Positions 893 through 60,853 of a stretch of 64,000 nucleotides of DNA are shown here, piece by piece. The stretch lies in NCBI GenBank assembly GCA_002794035.1, contig PCXQ01000001.1, forward strand, positions 3,256 to 67,255. Direction: 5' to 3'. Both the position numbers and the translations under genes were made by a program. The stretch's first letter is position 1. Each line of letters begins with the position of its first letter. The notes below the pieces were generated by a model. That model was not told the origin of the DNA. It did not search any database and worked only from the letters and a program-made list of their open reading frames with translations. This DNA comes from Candidatus Yanofskybacteria bacterium CG10_big_fil_rev_8_21_14_0_10_36_16 (GTDB lineage Bacteria > Patescibacteriota > Minisyncoccia > 2-02-FULL-40-12 > IGHO2-01-FULL-4-A).

Positions 893-2362
893 TTACAGTT
901 CATAACTATCTCCATCTTTTGGTACTACAGCATCAACTACTAGAATATCTTTTATTTTGCTTGCAAGAACTTCTGATACTTCTCTTTCCCCTTGAACCAC
1001 AAACACTTTTTTTAATCTATGTTCTCCTTCATCTTTATTTTGTTCATTTTGTCTTTGTGTTGTCTCATTAGAACAGCTTTCATCACTCTCAAGGTAGCTA
1101 TTTGCTGCTTTTACCCAGCGCAAAAGCCCTAGTTGGTCTGCATGTGCTGAATATCCTCCTATGGCCACAATGTTGCAGTTTACAGGGATTTCATTTCCAA
1201 AAATTCTTACAGAATTCGATTTTTTACCGACTTTTCTTTTGTCTTTTATTTCAAGAATTGCTCTGCCTAAGGTTCCTATTACCTGATATCCTACAAAAAG
1301 CATGGTTGATTTTGGATCGGGTAAGTATTTTCTTTCGTGGTGCAATATTCTTCCTCCAACACTCATTCCTGATCCTGCAATTATTATTTTGGGTGGAGGC
1401 ACTTCATTTATTGATTTTGATTCATTTACTGTTCTTGTCATCTTTAGTCCTGGGAAATGGAATATGTCATCTCCTGACTCAATAAGCTCTGATGCTTGTT
1501 TATTAAAGTTTTTCTGGTATTTTCTGTATACTTCTGTGATCTTTATTGCCAACGGGCTGTCAACAAATACAGGAATGCGGGGTATTCTTTTGTTTTCTAT
1601 TAATTCATTTAATTCAAAAAGAAGTTCTTGGGTTCTTTCAACTGCAAACGAGGGAATAATCAGTGCCCCGCCTTCCTTAACTGTATTTTCTACGGCGTCT
1701 TCTAGTTTCCCTTTCCTTAGCTCTCTGTCTTCGTGGACCCTATCACCATAAGCTGACTCTATAACCACATAATCAGCATTTCTGACTAATTCAGTAGGAT
1801 TTAAAAATGGTGTAGGCGGATTTCCTAGATCCCCTGAAAAATATATTCTTTTGTATTTCTCTCCTTCTTTCCACTTTATTTCAATTATAGATGACCCCAA
1901 AATATGTCCTGCGTCATGTAATTGTGCCTCGACATCTCCTTGTAAATCAACCTTTTCGTGGAAATCAAGACTTTGTACTAATTCAAGCATTCCTTTAATA
2001 TCTTTTCCTTCATAAAGAGGAGGATGTCCATCTTCTTTTGCTTCTCTTTCAATATGACTTAAGGAATCTGGCAAAGATGCAGTCATCAAGTCTTTTGCAG
2101 GGGTATTTGCATATATTTTACCTCTAAAGCCGTCTTTGTACAATTTGGGTAAGCGCCCCATATGATCTATGTGGCTGTGGGTTATGAAGACAAAATCTAC
2201 TTGGGAAGGATCATAAGAAAAATCTGCATAATTAAAATCTTCTGCGTATTTACTACCCTGGCTTAGACCGCAATCAATTACTATTTTTTGTCCGGAGTCA
2301 GTTTCAAGCAAATAATTAGCTCCAGTAACCTGACCAGCACCTCCGAAAAATGATAATTTCAT
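893..2362 (-). CDS. Metallo-beta-lactamase / beta-CASP ribonuclease (RNase J / CPSF-like)
   Basis: 489 aa. HSHIDH motif (HxHxDH) near the N-terminus; MBL fold followed by a beta-CASP-like region and C-terminal extension. Confidence 0.7.
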   Translation of the reverse strand: MKLSFFGGAGQVTGANYLLETDSGQKIVIDCGLSQGSKYAEDFNYADFSYDPSQVDFVFITHSHIDHMGRLPKLYKDGFRGKIYANTPAKDLMTASLPDSLSHIEREAKEDGHPPLYEGKDIKGMLELVQSLDFHEKVDLQGDVEAQLHDAGHILGSSIIEIKWKEGEKYKRIYFSGDLGNPPTPFLNPTELVRNADYVVIESAYGDRVHEDRELRKGKLEDAVENTVKEGGALIIPSFAVERTQELLFELNELIENKRIPRIPVFVDSPLAIKITEVYRKYQKNFNKQASELIESGDDIFHFPGLKMTRTVNESKSINEVPPPKIIIAGSGMSVGGRILHHERKYLPDPKSTMLFVGYQVIGTLGRAILEIKDKRKVGKKSNSVRIFGNEIPVNCNIVAIGGYSAHADQLGLLRWVKAANSYLESDESCSNETTQRQNEQNKDEGEHRLKKVFVVQGEREVSEVLASKIKDILVVDAVVPKDGDSYEL

Positions 2363-2413
2363 TTACAAATCATATCGACATAACCAATAAAACAAGGGTT
2401 TGTCGGAATATTA

Positions 2414-3259
2414 TTAAATTATTATGTAAAAAATTAAGTAACCTATTATACTTAAAGCAGCAATTGGTGGCAGTGCTGCCATTGGCCGTTTTTTATTTTG
2501 GTTCGTGAATATTAGATGTGTTAAGAAAAGCCCCGCAAGTGAAAATATTAATACAATCACTGATCCTGCAAGTGATGTTTTGGCTACAGATGATGTGAGT
2601 ATCAAGGGCATTACTATATCCCCTGAACCTAATATCATAAAATTATCTCCTGGAGTAACGTTGTTTAATCTTTCTGTGACAAGATTTAATTTTGATGGAA
2701 TTACAAAACCAAATATTGCTTTTGATTCAATCATTGCTTTTGCCATGCTAATCATGTGTTTTGTTTTGTAAACAGCTATTATGTCATAAATTGAAAGAAC
2801 AGCTAGTAAAATAACGGCGAACAAAGGCGTCACAGTAAGGCCAAATAAGGCTCCTATTCCTGCAATAGCGATTACCATTACTATATTTTGAATTATAACA
2901 TTATTCCTATATAAAAATAATCCTATTAATACCAAAGAGACAATGAGAGAGATGTAAGGGTTTAGAAATGATCCTAGGGATAGCTGTAAACCGCTAAAGA
3001 CAGCTAGTGTTAAAAATACTTTAAAAAAAATAGTTCCTGCTTTGCCGCCCTTTTTACTAAAAAATATAAAAAGAACTAATATGACTGCCAATATGATTAT
3101 GTCTAAAAGATTAAAGCTTAGCCCTTCAGACATGGCAACTGTTTCTTCTGGGGGTAATGCCAGTAGTTTTAATGTTACGGCTAATCCGAGGATTTGAGTG
3201 GCCAAGAAAGGTATTAATTCTTTTATGTATGAGCCAAGGTTTAGGTTTATATCCTTCAT
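2414..3259 (-). CDS. Presenilin / signal-peptide-peptidase-like intramembrane aspartyl protease (A22 / DUF1119-like)
   Basis: Polytopic membrane protein. YD motif (SIYDIIAVY) followed by GxGD (LGSGDIVMP) and a PAL-like AALPP near the C-terminus. Confidence 0.5.
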   Translation of the reverse strand: MKDINLNLGSYIKELIPFLATQILGLAVTLKLLALPPEETVAMSEGLSFNLLDIIILAVILVLFIFFSKKGGKAGTIFFKVFLTLAVFSGLQLSLGSFLNPYISLIVSLVLIGLFLYRNNVIIQNIVMVIAIAGIGALFGLTVTPLFAVILLAVLSIYDIIAVYKTKHMISMAKAMIESKAIFGFVIPSKLNLVTERLNNVTPGDNFMILGSGDIVMPLILTSSVAKTSLAGSVIVLIFSLAGLFLTHLIFTNQNKKRPMAALPPIAALSIIGYLIFYIII

Positions 3260-5593: not shown

Positions 5594-6514
5594 TTATAAT
5601 ACCTTCTTGCCTATAATATAAAGCCAGTACCACAGCTTATTTATAGGTAAATCAAAAGAACCAAAATACTCAATTTCACTACCTCCCCAACCTTTTTTAA
5701 ATCTTGTAACTCCGGGCCACTTTTTTTCATCAATCCCCCAAAAATCATAATGTTTTAATCCTGCTGATTTTAAAAATTTTATAATTTCCCAATGAAGCAC
5801 GAAGGGTGCCATGGCGGCTCTCATATTATAGTCAGATGCTCCATGAAGATAATAGCCGGTTTCTTTAAAAATTAATATTAAAGCAGAAGCTACAGGTTTT
5901 GAATTAAATTCAGCCGTAAAGATTTTGATTTGTATATCATCACTATTTTTAAAGTAGTCTATAAGCTTATGGTAGTAATTTTCAGAATGAGTGCTGAATT
6001 TGTCTTTAATAGATGTTTTTTTGAGAAGTTGCCAAAAAGTTTCTACATTATTATGTTGCTCTACTATTATAGAATGTTTTTTAGCAACGCGAATGTTGTA
6101 ACGAGTTTTAGAGTGCATTTCTGATAAAAGCTCATCTTCAGTTTTTTCTAAATTTAAAATCTGGGTCTTGTTGGGTTGAATTTGTTTTTTTGATTTTCTA
6201 AAACCTGATTCAATAAGTTTATCCGAAATTTTTTTAGACAATGGTTCTGCTTTTATGTAAATATATTTTTTTTCTTTTGAAATTTTTTTTAAATAAGATA
6301 CAAAATTTTCCGGAGAGAATTTGTCCTCATTGACAGCTAATGGTCCATGGGGTATATATAAATAATTTTTATTGACATATGGCATGTCGTGTTCTATTAT
6401 TTCAGCCCTAATTTCTCCCTCATGGTATTCAAAAACATTCCTGCCAATGTGCCTTTGGAATTCTAACCACGATTTTGATTGTAAAAATGACTCCATGTTT
6501 GAATTGAACATCAA
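5594..6514 (-). CDS. FemAB-family peptidoglycan interpeptide-bridge aminoacyl transferase
   Basis: 306 aa; TRFKKGWGG motif typical of FemX/FemAB. Sits directly downstream of murE. Confidence 0.55.
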   Translation of the reverse strand: MMFNSNMESFLQSKSWLEFQRHIGRNVFEYHEGEIRAEIIEHDMPYVNKNYLYIPHGPLAVNEDKFSPENFVSYLKKISKEKKYIYIKAEPLSKKISDKLIESGFRKSKKQIQPNKTQILNLEKTEDELLSEMHSKTRYNIRVAKKHSIIVEQHNNVETFWQLLKKTSIKDKFSTHSENYYHKLIDYFKNSDDIQIKIFTAEFNSKPVASALILIFKETGYYLHGASDYNMRAAMAPFVLHWEIIKFLKSAGLKHYDFWGIDEKKWPGVTRFKKGWGGSEIEYFGSFDLPINKLWYWLYIIGKKVL

Positions 6515-26150: not shown

Positions 26151-26232
26151 GGGCGAGTGATGAAATTGGCAAACATGCACGACTCAAAATCGTGTGCCGC
26201 AAGGCTTGAGGGTTCGAGTCCCTCCTCGCCCA
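26151..26232 (+). tRNA. tRNA-Leu (anticodon CAA)
   Basis: 7-bp acceptor GGGCGAG/CTCGCCC; anticodon stem CACGA/TCGTG with loop CTCAAAA; 13-nt variable arm; T-arm GAGGG-TTCGAGT-CCCTC. No encoded CCA. Confidence 0.8.
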
Positions 26233-26392
26233 CTTTTTATAGCTTATCATAGGGTGCTTAAAATAAATTCAGACAGAAATTAGAGAGCATATGTAGCGGG
26301 GTTAGCCATCGGTGATGGTAATTTGTTTAACCCAAATGGTAGAGCGACAAGATTGAGAATAATTTTAGTAATTTTTCGTATTTTTTAACAAT

Positions 26393-26424
26393 AAAACAGC
26401 CCCGCCACGGCGGGGCTGTTTTAT
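26393..26424. terminator. Bidirectional intrinsic terminator
   Basis: ACAGCCCCGCC-acg-GCGGGGCTGT followed by TTTTATT. Confidence 0.7.
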
Positions 26425-26438
26425 TGTTAAAAAAGTTT

Positions 26439-43785: not shown

Positions 43786-44012
43786 AAAATTACAAAACCC
43801 GCCGCTAGGCGATGGATTTCTCCACCTGTTACCCTTTCGGGTAACAACCACTGCTGGTGCTCCTAAACGACGGGTTTAGTACCCAGCAGTGGTTTTTACG
43901 TCATACCTCAAATGTTGACATTTTGAGGGTTAGGCAATTTTTAGTTGTTAGACCAATATTATCACAAAACCTTGAAAATCTCCATAATTTTCGTTTTACT
44001 TAAATTAATACT

Positions 44013-47186: not shown

Positions 47187-47558
47187 ATGCAGTGTAAATA
47201 CATAAAAAATAATAAAAAACAGTGCGGAGCAAACGCAATGCTCAAAAACAGTTATTGCTTTTATCATAATCCGGATGTCAAAAAAGCAGATAAAAAAGAG
47301 GCTCAATCAAGAGGTGGTAAGGGCAATAAAAGTAGAGTTAGTGAAACTCTTCCGCCAATAACTTTCAAGAAGTCCCGAAACGTCGTCGGATTGCTTGAGG
47401 AAACTATTAATTTGGTTAGGGCAGGAAAAATGGAAATACGAGTTGCTAACTGCATAGGATACTTGTCGGGCCACATCATCAAGGCAATTGAGGTTTCAGA
47501 GCTTACGCAACGCCTACAGGAAGTTGAGAAAAAAATAGAAATAAAATGGCAGGAATAA
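47187..47558 (+). CDS. Hypothetical protein with N-terminal Cys cluster
   Basis: CKYIKNNKKQCG...CFYH. Confidence 0.3.
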   Translation: MQCKYIKNNKKQCGANAMLKNSYCFYHNPDVKKADKKEAQSRGGKGNKSRVSETLPPITFKKSRNVVGLLEETINLVRAGKMEIRVANCIGYLSGHIIKAIEVSELTQRLQEVEKKIEIKWQE

Positions 47559-47836
47559 CTTTATCTACAATAAAAAGATTAGAGAAAAAAGCCGAAGAAT
47601 TAAGGGCGGCAAATCCAATAGTGGACCGGGTCATAACTGTTCCTTGGCCTTTAGAGATTTATAGCGAAGAGGGAGAAAGATTTATCCAAGAGGAAATTGA
47701 GCGGCGAAATCAAATTAGGAAAGAATCCGGTATTTATTCCGAAGGTCCTTTCTACGTGATTATGCCGGGTAGAATGCCTCAATGGGTGGCCGAAGAAGAA
47801 TGGAGGAAACAAGAAGAGGCAGAGAAACTTAAATAA
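47546..47836 (+). CDS. Hypothetical protein
   Basis: 96 aa, overlaps the previous gene by 13 bp; charged and helical. Confidence 0.3.
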   Translation: MAGITLSTIKRLEKKAEELRAANPIVDRVITVPWPLEIYSEEGERFIQEEIERRNQIRKESGIYSEGPFYVIMPGRMPQWVAEEEWRKQEEAEKLK

Positions 47837-47864
47837 TTTCCAATTTTAAGTTATAATGAGTAAA

Positions 47865-47959
47865 CTACACAAAAACCCAAATAGTAGTCAAGACCTTGAA
47901 CATAACGAGGGGCAACGAGGGTTTTTGTGTAGTAACAAAACTTCTTGTCGTTGCCCCTC
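47865..47959 (+). promoter_or_regulatory. Two overlapping alternative hairpins upstream of the serine recombinase gene
   Basis: Hairpin A has a 14-bp perfect stem: CTACACAAAAACCC (47865-47878) pairs with GGGTTTTTGTGTAG (47919-47932). Hairpin B has a 12-bp stem: GAGGGGCAACGA (47907-47918) pairs with TCGTTGCCCCTC (47948-47959) and is followed by TTTGTGCT. A's 3' arm sits inside B's loop. Confidence 0.45.
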
Positions 47960-48058
47960 TTTGTGCTATAAGGCGTCCTCTGTTTTAGATCCCAAGTCAT
48001 TAGAACAAGCATATTTTAGAATTTTTGACTGGGTTTTAGAAAACAAGGACAGTAAATT

Positions 48059-49702
48059 ATGGAAAAAACAAAAAGATTAGCTGCTCTATATGGTAGAGTA
48101 AGCACATCAAACCAAGAGGACCAGAAAACAATTGAGAACCAAGTTGATGCTCTTAATGAGTTAGCGAACAAAAATGATTTTACCATTGTTCAAGAATATA
48201 AAGATGATGGTTGGTCCGGAGATATTTTAGCCAGACCGGCCCTTGATCAGCTAAGGCAAGATGCAAAAAGTAAAATATGGGATACTTTGTTAATTTACGA
48301 TCCGGATAGGTTGGCCCGAAGATACTCATACCAGGAGTTGATTATGGACGAGTTAAAAGAGGCCGGGGTTGAAGTGATATTTATTACTGTATCTGCACCA
48401 AAAAATCCTGAAGATAAGATTTTGCATGGAGTTCGGGGGTTATTTGCAGAATATGAGAGGGTACGGATTACAGAACGTTTTCGTTTAGGAAAGCTCCGCA
48501 AGGTAAAAAACGGCCATGTATTAACAACGGAAGCCCCTTATGGCTATAACTACATAAGAGGAGACAGAGAAAGGCAAATACACGGTTATTATAAAATTAA
48601 CCCCGAGGAAGCAGAGGTTGTAAAAAAGATTTTTCAGTGGATTGGGGATGAAAAACTAAATATCAGAGCTGTTGTAAGAAAATTAAAAGAAGTAGGAATT
48701 AAACCAAGAAAAGCCAAAAGAGGTGTTTGGGCTACGAGCACAATATCAACAATGCTAAAAAACGGGGCTTATATTGGAGAGGCACATTGGGGTAGTTCGT
48801 ATGCAGTAGTACCCGAAAATCCAATCAAAAAAGAGAAGTATAAAAAAATGAAAAAAAGTAGCCGGAGAATAAAACCGAAAGAAGATTGGATAGCATCTAA
48901 AATACCTGTACCTGCCATAATAACCAAGGAGCTGTTTGCAAAGGTACAAAAACAACTAAAAACAAATTCCTCTCTATGTCCAAGAAATAAAAAATATACA
49001 TATCTACTAGGCGGCAAAATACATTGTGTATGCGGTAAAACCAGAAGTGGAGTAGGCCCACAGCGCGGTAAGCATCTATACTATCGCTGTAATGACAGGA
49101 TTTATAGCTTTCCTATACCTCCTACCTGTAAAGAACAAGCCATCAATGCAAGGATAGCTGATGAATTAGTTTGGAATAAAATAGCAAATCTTATGAGTTC
49201 ACCGGAATTGTTAAAAAACCAAGCAGAAAAATGGTCTGATTCTCGCAAGGTGGGGGCAAGATCTCATATTGGCGATATAGAAACAACAGAAAAGGAAATA
49301 TTAAAGTTAAAAGCACAGGAGGATCGCTATAATAAAGCATATGGTGCCGGGGTGTTTGATATAAACCAATTAAAAGAGTATGTTGCTCCGGTAAGAGAAC
49401 GAATAGAATTGTTAAAATCCCAAATAGTCAAAATCAAACAGGAAGAAAACCAGTCGCAAGACAATGCCCTCCCCTCGCTAGATGAAATCCGGTCATTTAC
49501 GAAAGTAACAAGAAATGCTTTATTTAACTTGAATTTTGAAATGAAAAGAGCCACAATTTTAAATGTTATAGATAAAATTATCGGTACACAAAAACAATTG
49601 AAGGTGTATGGTCAAGTGCCGATAACACAAAATTATGTCACATACAAAACTAGCTATCGGTATAGTCGGGTTGCCCAATGTTGGAAAATCAACATTATTT
49701 AA
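48059..49702 (+). CDS. Large serine recombinase (integrase)
   Basis: LAALYGRVSTSNQ catalytic Ser, resolvase fold, recombinase domain, CxxC zinc ribbon (CVCGK...CNDR), coiled-coil. The 3' end overlaps ychF by 68 bp. Confidence 0.85.
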   Translation: MEKTKRLAALYGRVSTSNQEDQKTIENQVDALNELANKNDFTIVQEYKDDGWSGDILARPALDQLRQDAKSKIWDTLLIYDPDRLARRYSYQELIMDELKEAGVEVIFITVSAPKNPEDKILHGVRGLFAEYERVRITERFRLGKLRKVKNGHVLTTEAPYGYNYIRGDRERQIHGYYKINPEEAEVVKKIFQWIGDEKLNIRAVVRKLKEVGIKPRKAKRGVWATSTISTMLKNGAYIGEAHWGSSYAVVPENPIKKEKYKKMKKSSRRIKPKEDWIASKIPVPAIITKELFAKVQKQLKTNSSLCPRNKKYTYLLGGKIHCVCGKTRSGVGPQRGKHLYYRCNDRIYSFPIPPTCKEQAINARIADELVWNKIANLMSSPELLKNQAEKWSDSRKVGARSHIGDIETTEKEILKLKAQEDRYNKAYGAGVFDINQLKEYVAPVRERIELLKSQIVKIKQEENQSQDNALPSLDEIRSFTKVTRNALFNLNFEMKRATILNVIDKIIGTQKQLKVYGQVPITQNYVTYKTSYRYSRVAQCWKINII

Positions 49703-50783
49703 TGCCCTGACTAAAAAACAAGTAGATATTTCTAATTATGCTTTTACAACGATCGACCCAAATGTCGGGGTTGTTGGGGTACCTGATGAAAGATTAGATA
49801 AATTGGCCAAGATGTCTAATTCCGAGAAAATTACCCCTACGGCCATTGAATTTATTGATATCGCAGGTCTTATTAAGGGCGCAGCAGAAGGAGAAGGGTT
49901 GGGTAATAAGTTTTTAGCTAATATTCGTGAAGTAGATGCCATTGCTCACGTAGTAAGGGTTTTTCCCGCCGGAGGCGGGTCCGCTCATGGCGGAGAAATA
50001 CAGCATGTGCACAAAAATATTGATCCGGTAAATGATATTGAAATAATCAATCTGGAATTAATAATGGCTGATTTGCAGACTATTGAAAGAAGATTAAGGG
50101 AGACAAAAGGCAATGACCCTGCCAAGACTTTTGAAAAAGAGGTGTTAAACAAACTTAAAGAAAATTTAGAAAAAGAAATTCTTGCAATAAACATTTTATT
50201 TACTGAAAAAGAACAAGAAATTGTTCGTGGGTTACATCTTTTAACCAACAAAAAAGTTATATATGCCTTTAATGTGGCAGAACAACAGTTGAAAGACAAT
50301 TGGCAGCCTAACAAAGAATTGCTTGATGTTATAAAAAACAATGAATTTGTTGTTGTCTCAAATACGTTTGAACAATTGCTATCTGAATCAGACCCTGAAG
50401 AAAAAAAGGTTTATCTTGAAGAACTAGGTTTAAAATATAGCGGTTTAGATCAGCTTATAAAAAAAGGATACAAGGCTCTTGGTTTAATTACATTTTTGAC
50501 AACTGGTCCTAAAGAAACACGTGCTTGGACAGCTCATGAGGGTGATTCTATCCCCCGTGCGTCATCTGCTATCCATACTGATTTTGAAGAAAAATTTATT
50601 AAAGCCGATGTGATAAATTGGCAAACACTTTTAGATGTAGCGGTCCATTCGGCGGATTCGGGTTCCTCATCACAAGCAGGCTCAGGCCAAGCTTGGTCTA
50701 AAGCAAAAGAGCTTGGCAAGATGAGAACAGTTGGTAAAGATTACATAATTCAAGAAGGTGATGTAGTCGAGATTAAAATTTGA
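49635..50783 (+). CDS. ychF: Ribosome-binding ATPase YchF
   Basis: GIVGLPNVGKSTLFNALT G1 motif; TGS-like C-terminus with a short insertion. Confidence 0.85.
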   Translation: MSHTKLAIGIVGLPNVGKSTLFNALTKKQVDISNYAFTTIDPNVGVVGVPDERLDKLAKMSNSEKITPTAIEFIDIAGLIKGAAEGEGLGNKFLANIREVDAIAHVVRVFPAGGGSAHGGEIQHVHKNIDPVNDIEIINLELIMADLQTIERRLRETKGNDPAKTFEKEVLNKLKENLEKEILAINILFTEKEQEIVRGLHLLTNKKVIYAFNVAEQQLKDNWQPNKELLDVIKNNEFVVVSNTFEQLLSESDPEEKKVYLEELGLKYSGLDQLIKKGYKALGLITFLTTGPKETRAWTAHEGDSIPRASSAIHTDFEEKFIKADVINWQTLLDVAVHSADSGSSSQAGSGQAWSKAKELGKMRTVGKDYIIQEGDVVEIKI

Positions 50784-54382: not shown

Positions 54383-54464
54383 TAAGTAGCATGTAGCAAG
54401 TATTATGCAAAAAAATCTAGATTTTAATCTAGATTTTTTATTCTTGCTACTGACTACTGGCTAC

Positions 54465-60699: not shown

Positions 60700-60779
60700 T
60701 TCACACCTCTTGTTGATTTTAAAAAAGCTGGAATTATATTGCCATAAATAATAATAAATTTAAAGTAATTCAAATTAAT

Positions 60780-60835
60780 CCCCACACTCATGCATGAGTG
60801 TGGGGATTAAAAACCCCGCCTAGGCGGGGTTTTTA
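60780..60835. terminator. Tandem hairpins: 26-nt perfect palindrome plus family terminator
   Basis: CCCCACACTCATGCATGAGTGTGGGG, then AAAAACCCCGCC-ta-GGCGGGGTTTTT (identical to 60181-60208). Confidence 0.7.
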
Positions 60836-60853
60836 ATGATTTTATTTTAAGGA

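Follow-up and report, generated by a model that had tools for sequence, protein, structure and literature searches.

Interleaved hairpins upstream of a large serine recombinase gene belong to a conserved putative integrase leader RNA

The 64,000-nt stretch of contig PCXQ01000001.1 from a Candidatus Yanofskybacteria bacterium analysed here (the window) carries two long inverted repeats with interleaved arms, both inside the 222-nt gap between a 96-aa ORF (47546–47836) and the integrase gene, which encodes a large serine recombinase (LSR). Further 5′ on the same strand lie a CHC2 zinc-finger primase-like gene and several ORFs without a family match. The locus raises the question whether these repeats act as DNA or as RNA, and what they might do for the integrase gene. 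The original prediction named both attenuation or antitermination control of integrase expression and a recombinase binding site such as attP.

Both inverted repeats far exceed chance. Thirteen perfect inverted repeats of at least 12 bp with loops of at most 60 nt were found in the window, against 0.52 in 100 dinucleotide-preserving shuffles of it, and a 15-bp perfect repeat was reached in none of the 100 shuffles. Hairpin B was present as predicted, with a perfect 12-bp stem (47907–47918 / 47948–47959) and 29 nt between its arms, and it can be extended to 18 bp at 89%. Hairpin A is real as well and has the expected 40-nt loop, but its stem is 15 bp, the earlier value of 14 bp having missed one terminal pair. 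The interleaving was verified: the arms come in the order A5′, B5′, A3′, B3′, with 0 nt between B5′ and A3′. RNA folding, proposed as a check, gave z = −3.4 for the 141-nt hairpin region. Neither hairpin arm is recopied in the window beyond chance, and an exact 27-mer was absent from the metagenome contigs searched, which rules out a repeated element or MITE. The coordinates of all features are collected in Table 1.

Table 1. Features of the integrase locus in the window, and LOOT RNA positions in the window and at six other loci.
Feature	Sequence	Positions	Strand	Remarks
-35-like hexamer TTAAAT	window	47829–47834	+	weak, 3/6; 17 nt 5′ of the -10 box
-10 box TATAAT	window	47852–47857	+	last two bases are the AT of the small-ORF ATG
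Small ORF, 74 aa	window	47856–48080	+	N-terminal half from the hairpins, C-terminal conserved helix; 22-nt overlap with integrase start
Predicted transcription start	window	47864	+	opens helix A as its first paired base; 7th nt 3′ of the -10 box
Helix A 5′ arm	window	47864–47878	+	partner 47919–47933; 15 bp, 100% complementary
Loop L1	window	47879–47900	+	sequence variable; 3′ part conserved, UYGAAYC
Helix B 5′ arm	window	47901–47918	+	core 47907–47918; invariant AAnGAGGG at base; partner 47948–47965
Helix A 3′ arm	window	47919–47933	+	bases 47921–47928 also form the helix C 5′ arm
Helix C 5′ arm	window	47921–47928	+	within A3′; 47925 bulged
Helix C hexaloop	window	47929–47934	+	GUAGUA; complements the first 5 nt of the predicted RNA
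Loop L3	window	47934–47947	+	14 nt; holds the helix C 3′ arm
Helix C 3′ arm	window	47935–47941	+	inside L3; 7 pairs formed with the 5′ arm
Helix B 3′ arm	window	47948–47965	+	CCCUCUUUG is the invariant core
Large serine recombinase (integrase)	window	48059–49702	+	Pfam Resolvase, Recombinase, Zn_ribbon_recom; PHROG 95 integrase 2.5e-97
ychF (host target gene)	window	49635–50783	+	5′ end overlaps integrase 3′ end, read as the right junction
LOOT RNA	window	43811–43936	−	
LOOT RNA	L006	2573–2690	+	
LOOT RNA	L008	1824–1958	+	
LOOT RNA	L002	1417–1545	−	
LOOT RNA	L037	1051–1169	+	
LOOT RNA	L041	1655–1782	+	
LOOT RNA	L003	2728–2851	−	

We compared integrase relatives of 51–76% identity taken from genome and metagenome collections. 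The region 5′ of their integrase genes is of three types: 12 relatives carry an HTH_17 excisionase-like (xis) gene behind a consensus promoter, five carry neither this gene nor hairpins, and a further five distinct sequences, the window among them, have hairpins interleaved in this way whose arms differ in sequence. A profile search with the ORF that spans the hairpins gave 69 matches, about 60 of which have the hairpin-encoded N-terminus, and the motif was present in the DNA of all nine further distinct members of this profile. The interleaved architecture was thus recovered directly 5′ of LSR genes as 14 distinct sequences at 24 loci in metagenomes and MAGs, the hosts being CPR bacteria and one Bacteroidota-labelled MAG. 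At every recovered locus the motif and the ORF stand directly 5′ of an integrase reading frame, typed as Resolvase plus Recombinase wherever a gene call and Pfam data exist, and among these loci the motif and an HTH xis gene never co-occur. The elements that bear the motif have unrelated cargo and differing targets (ychF, a tRNA gene and others).

Covariation was found in both helices. Over the 14 sequences, 92.9% of the cells of helices A and B are paired, against 41–52% when the 3′ partners are slid by 1–3 columns; both sides have changed in 22 of 36 pairs, and none of 500 shuffles reached any of five covariation measures. The five sequences ascertained through their integrases gave the same result. 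Helix A has both sides changed in 13 of its 15 pairs and 93.8% of its cells paired, while helix B has nine such pairs; in the extended B stem the pairs 106–170 and 107–169 are A-U in 14 and 13 of the 14 sequences, respectively. A third helix, C, came from the RNAalifold nested consensus, with 86.7% of cells paired and five of seven pairs changed on both sides, a level that 0 of 500 shuffles reached; its ungapped register gave no covariation signal. The claim of a structured regulatory element linked to the integrase gene is supported by these covarying helices together with the strict LSR linkage. Mismatches are biased on the + strand toward G.U (32, vs 13 A.C), two pairs are mainly wobbles (114–162, G.U in 7/14 sequences, and another, U.G in 8/14), and locus L037 has an extra 3 nt on each B arm, which gives a longer helix B. 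Together with the covariation, these features point to a single-stranded + strand nucleic acid and not to a protein site in dsDNA. L1 is 22, 25, 28 or 31 nt long across the family, that is, it varies in steps of 3, and the length of L3 is constant in 13 of the 14 sequences. Few unpaired bases are conserved, and no ligand or protein trigger is evident.

With a covariance model built on helices B and C, each of the 24 hairpin loci gave a single + strand match that scored 72–102 bits, compared with 19–46 bits on the reverse strand, and the model had no credible match in the 12 xis-type and five other relatives. Rfam release 15 gave nothing at the gathering threshold in the hairpin region (best match Plastid-psbA-1, E-value 1.1, 23 bits vs a cut-off of 54), so a known RNA family is ruled out. 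No match to the motif DNA was found by blastn against annotated phages and plasmids, a pattern scan of IMG/VR returned only five chance matches without hairpins, and no integrase relatives were found in viral contigs. Our search of the literature on LSR-linked RNA motifs found nothing relevant, and to our knowledge no conserved structured RNA tied to large serine recombinases has been described. Judged by comparison of these sequences, the leader is a previously undescribed, evolutionarily conserved RNA family, and what is new about it is the very long interleaved helices, the overlap with promoter and coding sequence, and the fact that it is never found beside an excisionase gene.

These results bear on the proposal that the repeats work as DNA, either as attP or as a recombinase or repressor binding site composed of two interleaved inverted repeats. 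The position of the motif would suit such a site, as it adjoins the integrase gene and overlaps the promoter-proximal region, a common operator location. However, the arms vary freely while remaining complementary, G.U is tolerated and A.C much less so, and the arm spacings of 40 and 29 bp are unlike LSR att sites, which are roughly 50 bp. We read the window as containing an element of about 6 kb in its integrated state, with the right junction in the 3′ end of the integrase gene. In several independent hosts, the last ~15–40 integrase codons share their DNA with the 5′ end of ychF, which is read in another frame (49635–49702 in the window, 7493–7608 in L002, 7562–7629 in L006, 7608–7654 in L037 and 7784–7845 in L041). 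This suggests that the LSR lineage targets the start of ychF and that the integrase C-terminus should change on excision. Since the hairpins are intact in elements with their junction at the integrase 3′ end and ychF, an attP 5′ of the integrase gene is implausible. The motif is unsplit in the integrated state, covaries as RNA does and has no fixed half-site sequence; this rules out attP, and a DNA-level site of any kind is extremely improbable. At L027, a locus of the hairpin type, the 3′ end of the integrase gene (1412–3139) overlaps a tRNA gene (3079–3150, − strand), which suggests that the leader motif travels with LSRs using other attachment sites.

Covariation alone cannot separate ssDNA from RNA motifs (Weinberg 2017, PMC5737381), and the primase-like protein of the window element would be in keeping with an ssDNA structure, for instance a signal for priming or replicating the element. 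But the motif moves with the integrase gene and its promoter among unrelated cargo, always on the integrase sense strand and with a constant distance of 6 nt to the -10 box, and we consider an ssDNA function very unlikely.

Our analysis also showed a LOOT RNA (Rfam RF03000, 50–86 bits) at the far left edge of the element in seven independent loci, 3–5.5 kb 5′ of the integrase gene and in varying orientation relative to it. The integrase gene runs into ychF in at least five of these seven loci, and no LOOT RNA was found in the scanned elements without ychF beside the integrase gene (L030, L032, L036, L039, L026 and L027). The LOOT RNA either belongs to the element or is host sequence next to the ychF attachment site; its position at an element edge is not discussed in the main text of the paper that reported its discovery.

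Analysis of the putative promoter showed that its boxes are fixed relative to the RNA structure. In the -10 box (TAnnnT), none of the 14 sequences departs from the T, the A and the final T, and at least 90% of them have the G of an extended TGn. The -10 box is followed by helix A after 6 nt, with no gap in any of the 14, and the first base of helix A is always a purine. At the -35 position, the homologous loci have TTAACA, TTCACA, TTTACC or TTGGAA. A promoter scan called this promoter in L030, L036 and L032 (TTAACA-17-TACAAT or TAGTAT, with an upstream TG and ending on the T of the ATG) and did not call it in the window; the boxes are of the sigma-70 type, CPR promoters themselves being uncharacterised. 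In the xis-type relatives (L002, L001, L003, L005 and others), a perfect TTGACA-18-TATAAT stands 6 nt 5′ of the HTH_17 xis ATG (in L002 at 5763–5801, 12/12), a geometry from which a leaderless xis-int mRNA is predicted. Because these relatives share the -10-plus-6-nt spacing, we infer that hairpin-type RNA starts flush with helix A, its predicted +1 being the first base of A (47864). Where the neighbouring gene is divergent, no second conserved promoter was seen 5′ of the ATG.

Some minor features of the promoter regions were recorded. L006 has TATAAT-GTGTCT-ATG directly on its integrase gene. An antisense TATAAT lies just 3′ of B in some members, being absent from the window and L008, and a conserved Tyr codon explains it equally well. 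L009, L013, L026, L032, L034 and L036 form one subfamily with a conserved pyrimidine block, TTCTTCCCTCTTACC, about 45–55 nt 5′ of the ATG and just 5′ of the -35 position. This block resembles the 3′ arm of helix B (CTCCCTCTTTG) and is absent from the window; it could be an operator, a UP-like element or an alternative partner of B5′ on long transcripts.

The small ORF had been thought probably just to encode the stems, and this view did not hold. Its frame contains no stop in any of the five integrase-ascertained sequences, independent homologues in which the other frames have 0–7 stops; the composition-matched chance of an open frame is 0.08–0.16 per sequence. Almost all of the ~60 motif-bearing protein matches are full length, with lengths of 63–111 aa across homologues, and the window ORF is 100% identical to P0001 (hypothetical COV29_00255 of a Candidatus Yanofskybacteria MAG). 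The frame is maintained even though its ATG (47856) takes its A and T from the end of the -10 box and its G from the base that follows. In L022 the ATG is shifted by 3 nt, into the -10 box, while TAnnnT stays put. L030 offers no alternative in-frame start; the gene upstream is divergent and a second promoter is not visible, which leaves transcription of this ATG unexplained. Upstream AUGs in the leader are mildly depleted (29 observed vs 50 expected), which is not decisive for selection against them. The ORF ends from −6 to +80 nt relative to the integrase start, often with a 19–23 nt overlap.

The two halves of the small protein differ. The C-terminal AFDLLFEEV is conserved at the protein level with synonymous variation, also in relatives without hairpins. 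In the AlphaFold model, residues 1–45 are unstructured (mean pLDDT 51–66 over residues 1–40) and residues 46–62 form the only helix (pLDDT 79–91). This fits a first half that is under nucleotide-level rather than protein-level constraint. Neither Pfam nor PHROG gave a match to the small ORF. P0048, P0056, P0060 and P0061 keep the hairpin-encoded N-terminus and have a different conserved C-terminus, which indicates that the hairpin module is portable.

The claim of an alternative-hairpin switch stood in part. A and B share no bases and have the topology of an H-type pseudoknot, so they are not alternatives to each other; A and C, however, draw on the same bases and are mutually exclusive. From the pairing pattern, the true alternative appears to be a switch of A vs C framed by B. 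The pseudoknot order (S1a-L1-S2a-S1b-L3-S2b), the near-zero S2a-S1b junction (0–3 nt) and the loop lengths (L1 22–31, L3 14 nt) are conserved in the 14 sequences and resemble those of H-type pseudoknots. The stems of 15 and 12–18 bp are far longer, and all pseudoknots known to us have much shorter ones. Helix A is complete before B3′ is transcribed, and the full A + B pseudoknot, in which each helix exceeds one turn, may be sterically or kinetically hard to form.

Fold energies were calculated for nested folds, as ViennaRNA excludes pseudoknots. Folds with B (+C) are more stable than those with A in 12 of 14 sequences, the difference between the B + C fold and the A fold being a few to ~15 kcal/mol. 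The sum of B alone and A alone is close to the nested minimum (in the window, −26.6 and −20.3 vs −39.0 kcal/mol). This suggests, within such a model, that the two RNA states are plausibly balanced.

One way in which these folds might act is transcription attenuation, B with the nested C being an intrinsic terminator and either an early helix A or a ribosome on the leader ORF deciding whether B forms. B is GC-rich and followed by UUUG, T makes up five of the first eight bases after the B core in several members, a leader ORF is present, A would precede B during transcription, and B-containing folds are the thermodynamic minimum in most sequences. The terminator-like character first ascribed to B was not confirmed, however. 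The supposed U-rich tract 3′ of B is only UUUGUGCU, and its UUU pairs with the invariant AAA of the extended helix; the B loop has 29 nt; and the tract is lost in L027, where it reads AUUGAG (CCCTCATTG), and is UUUGGGCG in L026. A terminator scan was silent at B in the window, L030, L036 and L032. The evident terminators of this genome have 4-nt loops and long T runs, and a canonical terminator at B is ruled out by the loop size, the paired U tract and the unlikeness to them. That the ORF is read through B to a conserved C-terminus argues against frequent termination. As a would-be antiterminator, A shares no bases with the B stem; its competitor is C, in the loop of B. We therefore consider attenuation quite unlikely.

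The comparison set for hairpin B was formed by long perfect inverted repeats with 4-nt loops and flanking runs of A and T in the window (26381–26434, 60775–60837 and 54410–54439), one of them of 25 bp beside tRNA-Leu (26151–26233). They look like the bidirectional intrinsic terminators of the genome.

Another possibility is a translational gate for the small ORF only, in which A, on long transcripts, blocks the 30S subunit, B + C frees the start and an Xis-like factor is thereby controlled; that transcription starts flush with helix A would on this view be incidental. The distance from the ATG to helix A is fixed, the helix starting 8 nt further 3′, the ORF is maintained and overlaps the integrase gene in several members, the HTH xis gene is absent from hairpin loci, and the layout recalls lambda xis/int/PI. 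Lambda Xis has 72 aa and is encoded by a small ORF upstream of int, with PI placed on the xis start. Here too a small ORF stands immediately 5′ of int, with an overlap of about 20 nt in many members, and a promoter on the ORF start would give a transcript that contains int and lacks the small-ORF start codon. At the sequence level this layout is seen in the -10 box, whose final base coincides with the T of the ATG in 13 of the 14 sequences, and in the predicted start behind it. Unlike lambda, the integrase is a serine and not a tyrosine recombinase, the small protein has a single predicted helix and not the Xis fold, the transcript would begin with a large covarying RNA structure that is absent in lambda, and no activator site like that of CII was identified. 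Against control of the small ORF alone, the -10 box is more invariant than the ATG (L022), no same-strand upstream gene or promoter was seen in L030, L034 and L036, and no structure is predicted for the half of the protein that the hairpins encode. Such a gate seems unlikely.

The explanation that we favour is that the hairpins are the core of a conserved cis-acting leader switch of about 105 nt in the integrase mRNA of small LSR integrative elements. We consider this probable, and the preference is for the general class of leader switch, rather better than an even chance, each single output being much less probable. A sigma-70-type promoter with its -10 box over the small-ORF ATG would start transcription at the first base of helix A. 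In one form (form I), B and C would make one long hairpin and leave a 5′ tail of about 40 nt free. The hexaloop of C would then display the complement of the first 5 nt of the RNA and might serve as a toehold for the 5′ end. In the other (form II), helix A would sequester the 5′ end and could stack on B to give an H-type pseudoknot. How the RNA divides between these forms may set the amount of integrase and, on longer transcripts that include the ATG, also that of the small-ORF protein. The likeliest route would be through accessibility of the 5′ end to decay and ribosome access just 3′ of the ATG, not termination. What the sequences show is the three covarying helices and their strand, the -10 and -35 boxes at fixed spacing, the maintained ORF, the LSR linkage and the separation from xis genes; the start site, the two-state behaviour in vivo and the regulatory output are inferred.

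Known leaders resemble this putative switch in part, and its layout is like that of lambda PI/xis/int described above. The ompA, ermC and aprE leaders are 5′-terminal stem-loop mRNA stabilisers, and a helix at the first transcribed base is the defining requirement for blocking 5′-end-dependent decay. If transcription starts as predicted, on the 7th base after the -10 box, the present family would have its helix at the first transcribed base in 14/14 sequences. Helix A has, however, the conserved competitor C and the interleaved B, which suggests a regulated rather than a constitutive state. With leader-peptide attenuators and riboswitch platforms the family shares mutually exclusive pairings, A and C, in a leader that is itself an ORF. 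Unlike them, it lacks a canonical terminator and a regulatory codon run, does not sequester the Shine-Dalgarno sequence or start codon of the gene it would regulate, and has few conserved unpaired bases.

A bolder reading takes the leader as an RNA sensor or protein-binding switch that replaces the missing excisionase module and sets integration vs excision, the choice of fold giving either integrase alone or integrase together with the small helical protein. We regard this as unlikely, and its extreme form, a direct cofactor role of the RNA for the recombinase, finds no support, the leader being without complementarity to att regions.

The motif might also give rise, through processing or termination, to a short trans-acting RNA of about 105 nt, as it has its own promoter and a compact stable fold. 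But there is no convincing terminator, the ORF runs on through the motif, and there is no conserved complementarity to att or integrase start regions, which makes this reading highly improbable. Complementarity of the leader to the integrase-3′/att region was not found in 8/9 loci, which rules out a guide RNA of the bridge-RNA type. The window alone has a single 11-nt identity (TACACAAAAAC) between the helix A 5′ arm (47866–47876) and the integrase 3′ coding region (~49585–49595), with p ~0.01 before correction for nine loci, and it is probably due to chance. Z-scores of about 0 in most loci ruled out long-range pairing between the free 5′ arm and the start of the integrase gene.

LSRs are widely used genome-engineering tools, and if the cis-acting leader switch controls the output of integrase or of a directionality factor, it would add a new layer of control to integration and excision. 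The leader would also be a compact dual-use sequence, with promoter, coding region and RNA structure together, and the covariance model is ready for finding such elements in metagenomes.

A last observation concerns AFD(I/L)LFEEV(L/M), encoded at 48001–48045 in the window. Almost all relatives, regardless of module type, encode it about 20–200 nt 5′ of the integrase or xis module, and its DNA is partly palindromic (CTTCTT TTTG AAGAAG). The protein that contains it may be a partner of the integrase.
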